In this document: positions 17,098-21,548 of the stretch, in pieces | Position numbering within the stretch: the stretch's first letter is position 1 | How the letters are laid out: the number at the start of each line of letters is the position of its first letter | Assembly: GCA_048885925.1 (NCBI GenBank) | Contig: JBHLLG010000031.1 | Location: 1 to 31,383 of the forward strand | Direction: 5' to 3' | Length of the DNA: 31,383 bases | Source: Candidatus Hermodarchaeota archaeon | Lineage (GTDB): Archaea; Asgardarchaeota; Lokiarchaeia; Sigyniarchaeales; SOKP01 | Position numbers and translations under genes: made by a program | The notes under the pieces: generated by a model | Seen by the model: the letters and a program-made list of their open reading frames with translations, nothing else | Databases searched by the model: none | What the model was told of the DNA's origin: nothing

Positions 17098-18513
17098 TCA
17101 TTTTAATTTTTCATTTTGAATTCTTTTTGCTTCTAAATAATTTAAATAATCTAATTCCTTCTTTTCATGGATCTTAATTAATTCTTCTTTTTGAGATAAC
17201 CATTCTGGGCCGTCTAAACGGTATAAAAGCATTGTAATTGCACCGATAATTAAAAATACTGCGGGTATTAGTGTAAATCCAATTAAAATTCCTAACTGAG
17301 CATAGTAATTTTGTACTTGAAGCTCCTCATCAAAACCAAAATTTGATATAGTTAATAAAAAAAGCCAATTAGCAATTGAAATTGCAGGTTTTGTAAGTAA
17401 AGCATTGATTCCTGAATAGGTTGTTTCTCTTCTTTTTCCTGTTCTTATTTCATCATAATCCACTATATCGGCTATAATTACTTGGTTTGTTAGCATATAA
17501 CCAGAGAAACCGATCCCAATAAGAATAAATCCGATTAAAGCGGTTATTAGAGTCCACCCTATAAAAAATAATATCACAAAACTTAATCCCGCGAAAAAAA
17601 TTGAAAAGATAAACATTTTTTTTGGCCCATATAATCCAATAAATTTATTATAAACTGTAAAAAAAACAAAAATTATAAGAAAAACTAACATCAAGGGAAG
17701 TGTAGCAAGAAATCCACTAATTAATAGAATATAATCAATATAATAGAATATTGCGGTAGTTAAAATTGTCTGTGCTAAGGTGAATGAAAAATTGGATACT
17801 TCAAAAATTAAAAAAGGTTTATTTTTGAAGGTTTCAACTATTCCCTCGCTTATAGGAAGTGTATCCTCCATTTGGGTATACTTATTTTCTTTCAAGTAAA
17901 AACTACTAACAAATAAAATTATAGCAGAAATAATCCCAACAAAGATCATCGCTATAAGAAAAATAAAATCAACTAAGGGAGATTCATTTTCAGTCAATAA
18001 AATGAGTGGTAATACAAAAGCAATCAATAAAGCAGTTGAATTTAATATATTACCATAAACCAATAGATTTGCTCTCTCTTTTGCGGTTATTGCCATTTCT
18101 GCTGGCAACGTAAAATTAATAAGACCTAATATTGTAAATATCGTGTCAAATGCAAAAAGAATAAATAATAAATTAAAAAAAAGAGCCACTTGATTAGTTA
18201 TATCAACAAGAGGAAACCAACATAGTATAAATATTATACCATAAAGTGGAGCACCAAACCGTATATAGGGAATTCTCCTTCCATATTTTTCCGATTTAGT
18301 TCGATCTTCAATAAAGCCAAACAAAGGGTCATTGATTGCATTCCATACTGAAAATATCATCCAAGCAATTCCAATCAGTCCTGCACTCAACCCCAACTTT
18401 ACATTATAGAAAAAAGTTATTGCTGAAAAAGCAATTTGAGAAGGTAAGCTGATACCTGCTCCAAGTCCGCCATAAGCTAGTTTAGATTTTAATGGCAATT
18501 TCTTGTTAGACAT
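17098..18513 (-). CDS. MFS transporter, GPH (Na+/melibiose symporter-like) family
   Basis: WNAINDPLFGFIEDRTKS..GRRIPY; IADIVDYDEIRTGKRRE. Confidence 0.92.
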   Translation of the reverse strand: MSNKKLPLKSKLAYGGLGAGISLPSQIAFSAITFFYNVKLGLSAGLIGIAWMIFSVWNAINDPLFGFIEDRTKSEKYGRRIPYIRFGAPLYGIIFILCWFPLVDITNQVALFFNLLFILFAFDTIFTILGLINFTLPAEMAITAKERANLLVYGNILNSTALLIAFVLPLILLTENESPLVDFIFLIAMIFVGIISAIILFVSSFYLKENKYTQMEDTLPISEGIVETFKNKPFLIFEVSNFSFTLAQTILTTAIFYYIDYILLISGFLATLPLMLVFLIIFVFFTVYNKFIGLYGPKKMFIFSIFFAGLSFVILFFIGWTLITALIGFILIGIGFSGYMLTNQVIIADIVDYDEIRTGKRRETTYSGINALLTKPAISIANWLFLLTISNFGFDEELQVQNYYAQLGILIGFTLIPAVFLIIGAITMLLYRLDGPEWLSQKEELIKIHEKKELDYLNYLEAKRIQNEKLK

Positions 18514-18709
18514 TATCTTATCAAATTGAATTTAGATTAATAGATATACTTAAAGTTATAGTTTTTACAATTGCTTAATAAAATCGATATTGAATATATT
18601 ACAATTTGCTTATTATTTTCTAATCTATAATGAAAATAAAGAACTTAGGAAAAATTCAATTTACAAAGAAAATAATATTAAAAATAAAAATAAGTTTAAA
18701 AAGATAAGT

Positions 18710-19299
18710 TTAAGCTTCAGTTTCCTTCAATATTTCGCCAAAAAGCCTTTTCACAGCATCAATACGCTTCTCTTCACCAATCTGTTCTACATCCTTTAAG
18801 GATATGGCTTCTTTTGGACAAACATCGATACATGCAGGATATGGTTCACCCCTCTCAGGATTGATAAATTCTTCCTTCATAGTTTCGCAAAGATCGCAAA
18901 TAAGGGCTTTTTGAGATTGTATATGTAGACTAAGCACACCGAAGTCGCACGCCCTTTACTGCAATTAAGAAAATAAGTCTCTTAATTTATACAGAAGGCG
19001 CATCCGTTGCACTTATCATCATCTACGATAATAGAGCCTGTTTTTTTATCTTGTTCTAAAGCTTTTTCAGGACAACTGCGAACACAAGGCGCATCCTCAC
19101 ACTTCTGGCATGCTAATGCGACATTTAAGATTGGTTCTATTCTTACTCTATGAATTCTTGTATTTATAGGATTGAATTCACCATCATGGACAAATGAACA
19201 CACAGATTCACATGTTTCACATCCTGTACATAAATTTGGGTCGACAATGATAAATTGGTGGACTACGCCACCCCTCTTTTTAGTTCCAACTTTAGACAT
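18710..19299 (-). CDS. 4x[4Fe-4S] ferredoxin-like subunit (DmsB/CooF/HydN type), split by an intron; join(18989-19299, 18710-18956), 185 aa
   Basis: Removing 18957-18988 gives 558 nt in one frame with 16 Cys in four motifs: CTGCETCESVC, CQKCEDAPCVRSC, CNGCAFCIRAC, CDLC...ACIDVC. The ATG abuts the AOR stop (TAAATG) after a GGAGG RBS. Confidence 0.88.
18957..18988 (-). other. Candidate 32-nt bulge-helix-bulge (BHB) intron in a protein-coding gene
   Basis: Minus strand: ugcgccuu-CUGU-AU^A-aauuaaga-gacuuauuu-ucuuaauu-GCAG-UA^A-agggcgug. It has a 4-bp central helix, two 3-nt bulges, an 8-bp intron stem and an 8-bp exon stem. Canonical cuts restore the frame. Confidence 0.85.
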
Positions 19300-21225
19300 T
19301 TATTTTTTACCTCCAGTAGATTTTAATTTACCAATTACAAAATTCAAACCAAGATTCTTGAGAGTTTCATCAGTGGGAATTCCAGTCTTAAGATCCCATC
19401 CACGAGCTTCATAATATCCACTGAGTAGTTTCTGATATCCATCCTCTTTTAATGTAACTCCCTTAGTAGGTCCTTTTGTATGTGCTTCTTTGAAAAACCT
19501 TTCAGGGGGTTTATCATCATCTCTAGTCCATCCTTCTCTTATATTGAAGCATTTTGAGAGTGTAACAATAGCATCTCCTCGGTGTGCTATAAATTTATCA
19601 GTTACAGGGATTCCTGTTACTAATTCAAAAACTTTTGCCATTTCAGCATCGTTTTCATAAATACCACGTGTAAATTTACATACAATATAAGAATCAATAA
19701 TAGCATAGATGTCTTCTAATTCTTTGATTGCCTTACCTCTCTCAACTGCTTTATCATAACCGAATCTATCAAAATTCCCTTTCGCATCAAGTCCATAAGA
19801 ACCATTCCTTAAATGACACGCTCCGCGGATCGCCACACTCATTCCAACTGCGAATGAATTCATACCGTGTACATCAAAGGCAGGTAATTCTAATCCTTTA
19901 ATATGCATACCATAATAACTGGCATTTTTTCTACCCATTTCTTCTAAACGTTTTCCCGCTTCTCTTGTACCATCTCCAAAAATCTTTCCTGCAAATCCTT
20001 TACCAAGGATCATCTCTTCTGTGAATTTTACTAGATTAACAGTCGATCCAAAAGGTAATTCATAACCAAGATCTTCTTTAGTAATGATCCCTTCTTCATA
20101 AAGCTCACAAGCCATGGCTGCTGTTACACCAGCACTTATAGCGTCAACGCCTAAATCATCCGTTAATGAGACACATTTAAACACGGTTGGCCAATCATAA
20201 TTTCCACAAGCAGAACCAAAACTATAGCATAATTCTTGATCGATACTTGAATAAAGATTTGGCCAATCAGGATGATCTTTAGGTATTTTTGTAATGTGAT
20301 CACAAGCTATCGAGCATTGAGAACATGCAACTTTCTTCACAACCCAATCTTGGTTTAGAGTGTCACCAGTAAAAGTTCCATCATCAACCTTATCCCATGT
20401 ACCTTCACGATGATTAAAAGTAGGCATCATTCCAAGTTTATTATAACTGGTTATACCAGCAGGCGTACCTAAATCTCGGTATTTAGCAGTGGCAGGGCCA
20501 TTTGCTACTTTTATCAGCTTTTTTGCTAATTCAAAAAATTCGACTGGTTTAGCTACACTTATGCCTTTAGTTCCTCTAAAGCATATCGCTTTAAGGTTCT
20601 TTGACCCCATAACAGCACCCATTCCAGTCCTTCCAGCTTGTCTATTACGATCATTGGTAATACATCCCATATGACCACCACGTTCTCCTCCCGGCCCAAT
20701 AGCCATTATTCCAAGGCGGTGATCTTGAAATTCATCTCTAAGAATTTCTTCTGTTTCCCAACATCCTTTTCCCCATAATGTATCTTTACATGGAGTTAAA
20801 TAATAGTCATCATCATCAACAACCATATAAACAGGCTCTAGAGCTTTACCTTTAACCACAATCATATTAATTCCAGCACGTCGTGCTTGAGCTGCAACTG
20901 ATCCTGAAGAAATTGCCATCCCAAACATACCTGTTAAGGGAGACTTAGCGAAAACTCCATATTTACTGGAAGTAGGTAAGATTGTTCCAGGAAAAGGACC
21001 TTGTGCATAAACAAAAACATTATCAGGGCTTAAGGGATCTACACCAGCGGGACACTCGTCCCAAAGAACTTTAGCTGCGAAGCCATAACCTCCAATCCAA
21101 TCTCGGCAGAACTCATTGGATAATGTACTTTTACTAATTTTACCATCTGTCAAATTAACGTCAAGTCGGACTTGTGTAAAACCTTTAACTTTATCAGGAA
21201 CCGGTATTTCCTTAGTTTTACTCAT
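19300..21225 (-). CDS. aor: Aldehyde:ferredoxin oxidoreductase family protein (W/Mo-pterin)
   Basis: KSPLTG, GRTGMGAVMGSKNLKAI, CSQCSIAC, DDLGVDAIS, RGACH, VCKF, YYEARGWD. ATG 21225 preferred over GTG 21234. Confidence 0.93.
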   Translation of the reverse strand: MSKTKEIPVPDKVKGFTQVRLDVNLTDGKISKSTLSNEFCRDWIGGYGFAAKVLWDECPAGVDPLSPDNVFVYAQGPFPGTILPTSSKYGVFAKSPLTGMFGMAISSGSVAAQARRAGINMIVVKGKALEPVYMVVDDDDYYLTPCKDTLWGKGCWETEEILRDEFQDHRLGIMAIGPGGERGGHMGCITNDRNRQAGRTGMGAVMGSKNLKAICFRGTKGISVAKPVEFFELAKKLIKVANGPATAKYRDLGTPAGITSYNKLGMMPTFNHREGTWDKVDDGTFTGDTLNQDWVVKKVACSQCSIACDHITKIPKDHPDWPNLYSSIDQELCYSFGSACGNYDWPTVFKCVSLTDDLGVDAISAGVTAAMACELYEEGIITKEDLGYELPFGSTVNLVKFTEEMILGKGFAGKIFGDGTREAGKRLEEMGRKNASYYGMHIKGLELPAFDVHGMNSFAVGMSVAIRGACHLRNGSYGLDAKGNFDRFGYDKAVERGKAIKELEDIYAIIDSYIVCKFTRGIYENDAEMAKVFELVTGIPVTDKFIAHRGDAIVTLSKCFNIREGWTRDDDKPPERFFKEAHTKGPTKGVTLKEDGYQKLLSGYYEARGWDLKTGIPTDETLKNLGLNFVIGKLKSTGGKK

Positions 21226-21548
21226 AGTTTTCACAATTTTATTAAGTTTTTATATAATGATTTGATTGTAGATATAAAAAATAAATCATCAAAATTTTAA
21301 AGGTTACTTGTTAATTATGGAAATACTTTTCTTTAAAATGAGTAATCTCTTAGATTAGAAAAGTAATAATAAATGATTAGAATAGAATTTACAAAATTGT
21401 AAATGGATTATTTTAAGTCTTATTAATTAAAAAGATTAGTTGGAAAATCATTGTTTGACACTCAATCTAATTTTTTTTAAAGTTAAAACCATTTTAAATA
21501 TCAACTATAGCAAATTTAATTTTAAATTTTTTATGCAAATAAAAGTTT

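Follow-up and report, generated by a model that had tools for sequence, protein, structure and literature searches.

A predicted 32-nt bulge-helix-bulge intron in the messenger RNA of an Asgard polyferredoxin gene

Can a gene that is broken by a stop codon and a change of reading frame still specify a full-length protein? The question is raised by a four-cluster polyferredoxin gene on the minus strand of the window, the whole 31,383-nt stretch of DNA analysed here, to which all coordinates without a contig or locus name refer. The open reading frames (ORFs) agree with an original prediction, made from the sequence of the window, that this gene is split by a premature TAA at 18982-18984 together with a frame change. 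The upstream ORF, 18982..19299, encodes 105 amino acids rich in Fer4 motifs and is terminated by this in-frame TAA. The downstream frame is open from 18955 only, being closed upstream by a TAA at 18956-18958, and its first start codon is a GTG at 18937. Since the two frames do not overlap, a simple frameshift is unable to join them, and a programmed frameshift was rejected on account of the non-overlapping frames and of the two stops. Conversely, excision of exactly 18957-18988, as originally predicted, leaves 558 nt that encode 185 residues and a stop codon, with 16 Cys and a restored CxxCxxCxxxC iron-sulphur (Fe-S) motif; the junction splits a codon, and the spliced protein is colinear with uninterrupted orthologues of 184-188 residues. 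The parts of the gene are the following.

18989..19299, minus strand: exon 1 (103 codons plus 2 nt) of the gene for the Fe-S (polyferredoxin) subunit (ORF; Pfam Fer4 families)
18982..18984, minus strand: premature in-frame TAA, met when the transcript is read unspliced
18957..18988, minus strand: predicted 32-nt intron, as delimited by a cut after the second base of each bulge
18710..18956, minus strand: exon 2, 1 nt plus 81 codons plus stop (ORF; spliced translation)

It is very likely that 18957-18988 is a 32-nt archaeal bulge-helix-bulge (BHB) intron in the mRNA of this gene, in a Loki-type Asgard genome. The BHB reading is supported by a cut rule that is exact with respect to the frame, by the recurrence of the insert with compensatory changes, by purifying selection on exon 2 and by the presence of genes for the splicing endonuclease EndA and the ligase RtcB. 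These archaea would then, very probably, splice some of their mRNAs by means of the enzymes of tRNA splicing. The original prediction had likewise proposed a tRNA-type intron in the mRNA of an Fe-S gene of an Asgard-like archaeon; the relatives of the host are indeed Promethearchaeota (Loki-type Asgard) metagenome-assembled genomes (MAGs), and the intron is supported by the comparative tests described below, splicing itself being deduced from sequence. According to the proposed mechanism, the exon flanks would base-pair in the transcript, both mutually and with the intron 3' end. A 4-bp helix would thereby arise, flanked by two 3-nt bulges that lie on opposite strands. EndA would cut after the second base of each bulge, and RtcB would ligate the exons and probably circularise the intron. 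The third CxxCxxCxxxC motif would be restored in the spliced message, allowing production of the 185-residue protein, and unspliced RNA would give a truncated product of 105 residues.

The predicted structure comprises, from the 5' to the 3' end of the transcript, the following elements.

18995..19002, minus strand: outer (exon-exon) helix h, 5' strand, pairing with 18948-18955
18991..18994, minus strand: central helix H, 5' exonic strand, 4 bp with 18959-18962
18988..18990, minus strand: 5' three-base bulge, predicted cut between 18989 and 18988
18963..18987, minus strand: intron hairpin h', 8-bp stem (18980-18987 with 18963-18970) and 9-nt loop (18971-18979)
18959..18962, minus strand: central helix H, 3' intronic strand, 4/4 pairs, one of them G.U
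18956..18958, minus strand: 3' three-base bulge, predicted cut between 18957 and 18956; reads TAA in the frame of exon 2
18948..18955, minus strand: outer helix h, 3' strand, 8/8 pairs with 18995-19002

All the elements of the strict BHB originally drawn from the insert and its exon flanks were located in the sequence, and the strict hBHBh' geometry is realised with 20/20 pairs in this register. RNAfold returns essentially the same BHB fold, with the register shifted by one base at the 5' bulge and a minimum free energy of -23.2 kcal/mol (z = -2.70; 2/200 shuffled sequences were equally stable). Four G.U pairs lie in the exon and central helices, so that the motif is specific to the coding strand. 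The predicted cuts follow the rule given for archaeal mRNA and tRNA BHB motifs, cleavage between the second and third bulge residues, in the passages of PMC2738675 that deal with it. The layout was then counted genome-wide, with an intron length of 32 and 18 required pairs (6 outer, 4 central and 8 inner): only 3 of the 7,794,724 strand positions of the genome display 18/18 pairs. The site in the window is among these three by construction, the layout having been taken from its insert; the second is a frame-restoring insert in a CO dehydrogenase gene, to which I return below, and the third is a hairpin at the end of a gene on contig C43. This third position (C43:12635-12666, minus strand) falls at the end of a long ORF, with 316 codons upstream and 3 downstream after removal, and may be either a terminator-like hairpin or an intron that alters the C-terminus.

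Other classes of element were also considered. An Rfam scan of 17500-21500 at E up to 1 gave a single chance match, located elsewhere. A self-splicing group I or group II intron, or a described RNA family, was rejected in the absence of a covariance-model match and because the insert is just 32 nt long. A remnant of a miniature inverted-repeat transposable element or insertion sequence was rejected as well, blastn-short with the intron and its flanks against the whole genome having detected no second copy (best other match 16 nt, E 0.04).

If the insert is an intron, orthologues should be informative. They were searched for in 60 relatives, then in 153 genomes of the order (116 with an orthologue) and then by a scan of named MAG records, which gave 118 loci corresponding to 88 distinct coding sequences. 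In the first alignment, 26/29 loci were uninterrupted and lacked exactly these 32 nt. An insert at this site (site 1) is found in 4/88 distinct coding sequences, those of G000 (the genome of the window), G094, G016 and G023, and measures 32 nt in each. The G094 insert is plainly homologous to that of the window, an A-to-G change leaving a pair of the central helix as U.G. The G016 and G023 inserts belong to another sequence type and are offset by one base in the 3' direction of the coding frame; in the exon helix of these two genes, GG..CC (type B) takes the place of the CC..GG of the window (type A), a compensatory change. In a single structural register, 128/140 cells are paired across seven 32-nt introns. 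The alignment with orthologues suggested alongside the original prediction has thus brought out both intron-less alleles and, in three other species, pairing kept by compensatory changes. Stops seen inside matches to paralogues lie upstream of start codons and are not introns.

The exon helix is complete (8/8 pairs) in 4/4 intron-bearing ferredoxin genes, and in 5/81 (register A) or 1/81 (register B) intron-less genes. Most intron-less genes pair at 5-6 of the 8 exon-helix positions because the sequence coding for the Cys motif is pseudo-palindromic: the site is predisposed to exon pairing, and the intron carriers are tuned. In the intron-bearing genes, the spliced junction codon is ATA or GTA, followed by AGG or AGA (Arg). 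Intron-less orthologues mostly have ATT or ATC at the junction, with ATA in 5/81, and for the Arg codon AGG in 4/81, AGA being the commonest (36/81). Synonymous codon choice in the ferredoxin genes tracks the presence of the intron.

These comparisons bear on a first alternative, namely that a small insertion has inactivated the gene and that the BHB-like fold is a coincidence, produced by a palindromic insert in the pseudo-palindromic sequence of the Cys motif. In favour of this alternative, the aligned loci that lack the insert include the closest ones, at 98% protein identity, and the exon flanks pair in part in most of the 81 intron-less genes, where no insert is present. On the gene tree, G016 has G023 as its sister (SH-aLRT 99), and the intron is common to both. 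Between them, exon 2 displays a rate of synonymous change (dS) of 0.91 and of nonsynonymous change (dN) of 0.053, hence a dN/dS of 0.058 over about one synonymous change per site, which is similar to the value of 0.035 obtained for exon 1. Their introns differ at 3/32 positions, while about half of the synonymous sites differ. Moreover, exon 2 is open for all 81 codons in 4/4 carriers. Selection on exon 2 and its open frame indicate that the downstream frame is translated, and the insert must therefore be either removed or skipped. As a pseudogene would be expected neither to maintain such a frame, nor to keep the 32-nt length and the pairing through compensatory changes, nor to share a cut rule with independent inserts in three other places, inactivation appears very improbable.

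Skipping, the other possibility left by selection, would leave the RNA intact: the ribosome would hop over the insert or be otherwise recoded. In phage T4 gene 60, a ribosomal bypass is associated with a similar arrangement of stop and hairpin. Here, the stop lies two codons past the putative take-off point, with a hairpin just downstream, and hopping would also account for the selection on exon 2. By contrast, there are no matched take-off and landing codons at the ferredoxin or CO dehydrogenase junctions, and the ferredoxin junction falls inside a codon. Nor does hopping predict pairing between exons, 3-nt bulges and a 4-bp helix with base-exact cut sites. I consider it highly unlikely, and excision of an intron the better account of these features.

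An artefact of assembly or binning would dispose of the insert altogether. The genome of the window is a fragmented MAG (181 contigs, 4.4% contamination, 95% complete), which makes an error conceivable. However, a Logan contig assembled independently from DNA run X1 (658 nt, depth 22.1) spans 18412-19069 with 0 differences, insert included; run X1 is possibly the source sample of the window, in which case the match represents a second assembler rather than a second sample. The DNA is present in the samples of runs X1-X4. Inserts at the same site are also present in several other genomes, at least 2 of them deposited as separate MAG records under different accession prefixes (L033=L082, L027=L094). 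The probability left to an artefact is very small. In a second X1 contig, 34 nt replace 66 and 8 other differences occur in 81 nt; it comes from a co-occurring relative that lacks the insert and does not represent an excised form. Over 18931-18998, an intron-less relative of the ferredoxin gene is seen in the sediment of run X1 with about the depth of the intron-bearing form (25.6 vs 22.1).

The original prediction had added that more such introns may hide as apparent frameshifts. The genome of the window proved to contain one, in a CO dehydrogenase gene, and its relatives contain others, as listed here.

G000:C4:38336-38367 (locus L134:1937-1968), plus strand: CO dehydrogenase insert, 32 nt, strict BHB (strict BHB and ORF-merge scan)
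L179:1508-1537 (G141:C72), minus strand: Ras-family GTPase insert, 30 nt, BHB-like, with in-frame stop (weak match of a model of the CO dehydrogenase introns, 26.6 bits)
L038:979-1012: second-site ferredoxin insert of G080, another genus, 34 nt, frame-breaking
L033:1124-1153: second-site ferredoxin insert of G094, 30 nt, in-frame
L028:1734-1763, minus strand: second-site ferredoxin insert of G023, 30 nt, in-frame

The split gene on C4 encodes the catalytic subunit of an anaerobic CO dehydrogenase (TIGR01702, 616 bits). Its insert is laid out as 1 nt, an 8-bp stem, a 9-nt loop, an 8-nt return, 4 nt of central helix and 2 nt, and its exon helix is rich in G+C. The match to Pfam PF03063 reaches position 457 at the last residue of exon 1 and resumes at position 458 with the first residue of exon 2. 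The gene is present in 73/134 genomes of the family, and a 32-nt intron at the same site was found also in G085, of another genus, and in G094; this survey leaves out places with short open frames at contig ends in G063, G097, G105 and G072. In the three introns 98.1% of cells are paired and four inner-helix pairs are changed on both sides, a pattern that is suggestive but, with three sequences, does not amount to a statistic. All three carriers have GAG as second codon of exon 2, which completes the exon helix, and the two intron-less genes compared have GAA. When a model is made from the introns of CO dehydrogenase only, the intron of the window aligns to it from end to end without a non-canonical pair, at a low score (11.3 bits, E 0.53 in 25.6 kb). 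The type-A ferredoxin and the CO dehydrogenase introns have an identical layout, 1+8+9+8+4+2, and no evident sequence in common; the G016/G023 type has the same length of 32 nt (the 32-nt introns are those of L003, L033, L139, L163 and L169). In L170 (G079:C121), the CO dehydrogenase ends a few codons past the position of the intron site and is followed by an unrelated ORF, so that its C-terminus looks truncated.

The precise continuity of the CO dehydrogenase profile is relevant to another alternative, in which the interrupted gene would specify two polypeptides, of 105 and 75 residues, that assemble into a split ferredoxin, the second being initiated at the GTG at 18937. A downstream ORF with a GTG start does exist, as this hypothesis demands. 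Yet the codons between the 3' cut and this GTG, including that of the fourth Cys of the motif, would remain untranslated though they are conserved in frame, the geometry differs in G016 and G023, and in CO dehydrogenase exon 2 takes up the profile at exactly the next position. A split ferredoxin is accordingly judged extremely unlikely, and a single spliced protein is retained.

The ferredoxin gene itself has a second intron site, in its first Cys motif, which carries 30- or 34-nt BHB-like inserts in three genomes. In the G080 insert, a central helix of 4 bp is combined with 3-nt bulges and an inner hairpin, and cutting by the rule recovers both frame and motif to the base. The hairpins of the G094 and G023 inserts differ, and translation of these in-frame inserts would add ten unconserved residues inside the motif. 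All the second-site inserts have one extra unpaired base opposite the 3' bulge. The GTPase insert of G141, for its part, sits just before the WDxAGxE motif; the match to Pfam PF00071 covers positions 1-50 ahead of the insert and continues from 53 beyond it, the two residues in between being supplied by the final codon of exon 1 and by the codon at the junction. The model is specific to CO dehydrogenase, and its other weak matches were rejected: L178 (a subtilase) and L180 are continuous ORFs, and L181-L189 are hairpins, gene ends or continuous ORFs.

The enzymes that splicing would require are encoded in the genome. An EndA gene is found at C22:7621-8214 (PF01974, 101.7 bits; TIGR00324, 112 bits vs a cut-off of 59.6) and an RtcB gene on C12 (569.6 bits). 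Asgard archaea are described in PMC5829648 as possessing an (alpha-beta)2 EndA with a loop that confers broad specificity.

Several observations nevertheless weigh against the intron reading. No second EndA subunit was found, with PF01974 at E up to 10 or with the EndA protein as query, in this 95% complete MAG; it may be divergent or lie in the absent 5% of the genome. Not all the inserts are strict BHB motifs: the G016/G023 type has one mismatch in the central helix, which makes it a relaxed BHB, and the second-site and GTPase inserts are relaxed too, with a 1x3 or 2x3 internal loop (2x3 at the 3' site of the G141 GTPase) and no clean 3' bulge. A positive control on tRNA introns failed: aragorn detects only 31 tRNA genes in G000 and calls introns in 19, and a strict BHB of the same length as the call was found in 1/18 of the calls of up to 200 nt. 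The aragorn intron calls are taken to be unreliable here; the tRNA genes appear to be heavily interrupted, in unconventional ways, and to be poorly predicted. The first whole-genome scan for a BHB whose removal merges ORFs was unspecific, with 844 matches vs 770-802 in shifted controls, and stricter or relaxed versions gave no excess over shifted controls either (16 vs 13-14; 12 vs 8-11; 43 vs 38-50; 5 vs 4-7), most matches being adjacent genes fused by removal of the spacer. The genome-wide scan envisaged by the original prediction has recovered the CO dehydrogenase insert without any excess over the controls, and such introns are therefore rare in this genome, where two were found. Finally, the cutting and joining steps are predictions, as is anything said of what becomes of the excised intron or of a part in regulation. 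The single RNA run considered, X20 (share 0.05), provided no record on this stretch, a result that speaks neither for nor against splicing. Among the scan candidates, C45:9924-9975 and C136:3394-3410 were rejected, their downstream halves beginning domains of their own at the first positions of Pfam profiles; C18:15411-15470 was rejected too, neither half having a Pfam match, and the upstream halves of the C45 and C136 candidates have none.

How did the intron come to be where it is? On a tree of the 88 coding sequences, computed with the inserts removed, the site-1 carriers fall in three places, which calls for at least 3 changes. The approximately unbiased test, made on 85 rows (three long rows were dropped) and weakened by the choice of the groups with the tree already in view, rejects the four carriers as one group (p 0.0006) and also the grouping of the two carriers whose introns are clearly homologous (p 0.001). 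Two histories would fit: an old intron with many precise losses, or repeated gain or transfer. One tentative idea, which I consider less likely than not, is that a family of uniform 30-34-nt BHB mini-introns repeatedly colonises, or moves between, coding genes of Promethearchaeia at "proto-splice sites" where the exons can pair. It would fit hosts that include metabolic enzymes and a Ras-family GTPase, a tree that rejects a single, loss-free origin and the shared 1+8+9+8+4+2 layout. Were it true, the closest archaeal relatives of eukaryotes would be gaining mRNA introns today via the tRNA-splicing machinery, and these anaerobic redox enzymes might be produced under the control of splicing.

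The probable partner of the polyferredoxin is encoded directly upstream.

19300..21234, minus strand: aldehyde:ferredoxin oxidoreductase (AOR)-family gene, 644 amino acids (ORF; Pfam AFOR_N 215 bits, AFOR_C 328 bits)

Its stop codon abuts the ATG (19299) of the interrupted gene. The structures nearest to the N-terminal half of the polyferredoxin are those of Fe-S subunits of AOR-family enzymes (6x6u_B, 6x1o_B and 8c0z_C), a likeness consistent with the label of AOR partner. In the BHB-intron reading, the two genes are taken to be co-transcribed.

Watanabe reportedly described, in 2002, a BHB intron in the pre-mRNA of cbf5, a pseudouridine synthase gene of Crenarchaeota. As of 2009, no other gene was confirmed to have such an mRNA intron, according to the account of cbf5 in Yokobori 2009 (PMC2738675); in 2020, the relevant passages of PMC7714728 still gave cbf5 as the sole earlier example and added an intron in the 5' untranslated region (UTR) of the Haloferax volcanii HVO_1309 mRNA. 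The cbf5 intron, as those passages present it, resembles the one described here in that its BHB or relaxed BHB is formed partly of exon sequence, with predicted cuts between bulge bases 2 and 3, in that its patchy distribution is read as gain plus loss, and in its dependence on a broad-specificity EndA. It lies, however, at the codon of the catalytic Asp, and thus belongs to the same class of intron but to another family; it is crenarchaeal, whereas the hosts here are polyferredoxin, CO dehydrogenase and Ras-family GTPase genes of Promethearchaeota, with several genes and sites in one family of genomes and a uniform length of 30-34 nt. Moreover, its splicing is reported as established by cDNA and in vitro cleavage, whereas the present introns are predicted from DNA sequence. 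The HVO_1309 mRNA is likewise an EndA substrate in an mRNA, outside tRNA and rRNA, but is described as euryarchaeal, with the intron in an untranslated leader that leaves the frame uninterrupted and with verification in vivo and in vitro (PMC7714728). The BHB introns of archaeal tRNA and rRNA genes, including the heavily interrupted tRNA genes of Asgard archaea, share the motif and the presumed enzymes, as well as repeated, patchy gains where exons can form the motif and relaxed variants (bioRxiv 10.64898/2026.10.13.758758; PMC5829648, in the parts that treat them). Here, in contrast, the host would be a messenger, base-exact removal is needed for the frame, and splicing would compete with translation.

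Searches of full-text literature, covering few subscription journals and no supplements, found no report of BHB introns in Asgard protein-coding genes, and a search for the term "mRNA" in the available text of the 2026 preprint on Asgard tRNA introns (bioRxiv 10.64898/2026.10.13.758758) gave no occurrence. The kind of intron would thus be known, from the cbf5 mRNA, and the lineage and the genes would be new. A further comparison is one of analogy only.

In the non-spliceosomal splicing of HAC1/XBP1, the RNA is cut at two structures by a protein endonuclease and sealed by a tRNA ligase, which in animals is RtcB, with a change of reading frame. XBP-1 is mentioned together with RtcB in the abstract of PMC8718801. 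The HAC1/XBP1 system differs in its nuclease, IRE1, in its structures, which are stem-loops and not BHB motifs, and in being a regulated stress switch, no such regulation having been demonstrated here.

The archaeal record consisted until now, as far as the passages cited above go, of one gene with a BHB intron inside its reading frame, cbf5, and of one haloarchaeal 5' UTR. The same mechanism appears to serve four sites in at least 3 unrelated genes within a single family of Asgard archaea. These archaea form the closest lineage to eukaryotes, and their tRNA genes were already known to be unusually rich in introns. Gene callers will score such genes as frameshifted or as pseudogenes, so that a functional CO dehydrogenase or AOR electron-transfer subunit may go unnoticed when metabolism is reconstructed from MAGs. 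Their patchy distribution, incongruent with the tree, offers a tractable case of gain and loss of mRNA introns without a spliceosome, and raises the question of how splicing would be coordinated with translation in a cell that has no nucleus.

A minor observation concerns the public records in which orthologues were found. The genes of records L080, L058, L059, L070-L072, L083 and L104 nest among Promethearchaeota orthologues, and the titles of these records name Thorarchaeota, Odinarchaeota, Hodarchaeota and, in one case, a Nanopelagicaceae bacterium. These divergent titles probably reflect problems of labelling or binning.

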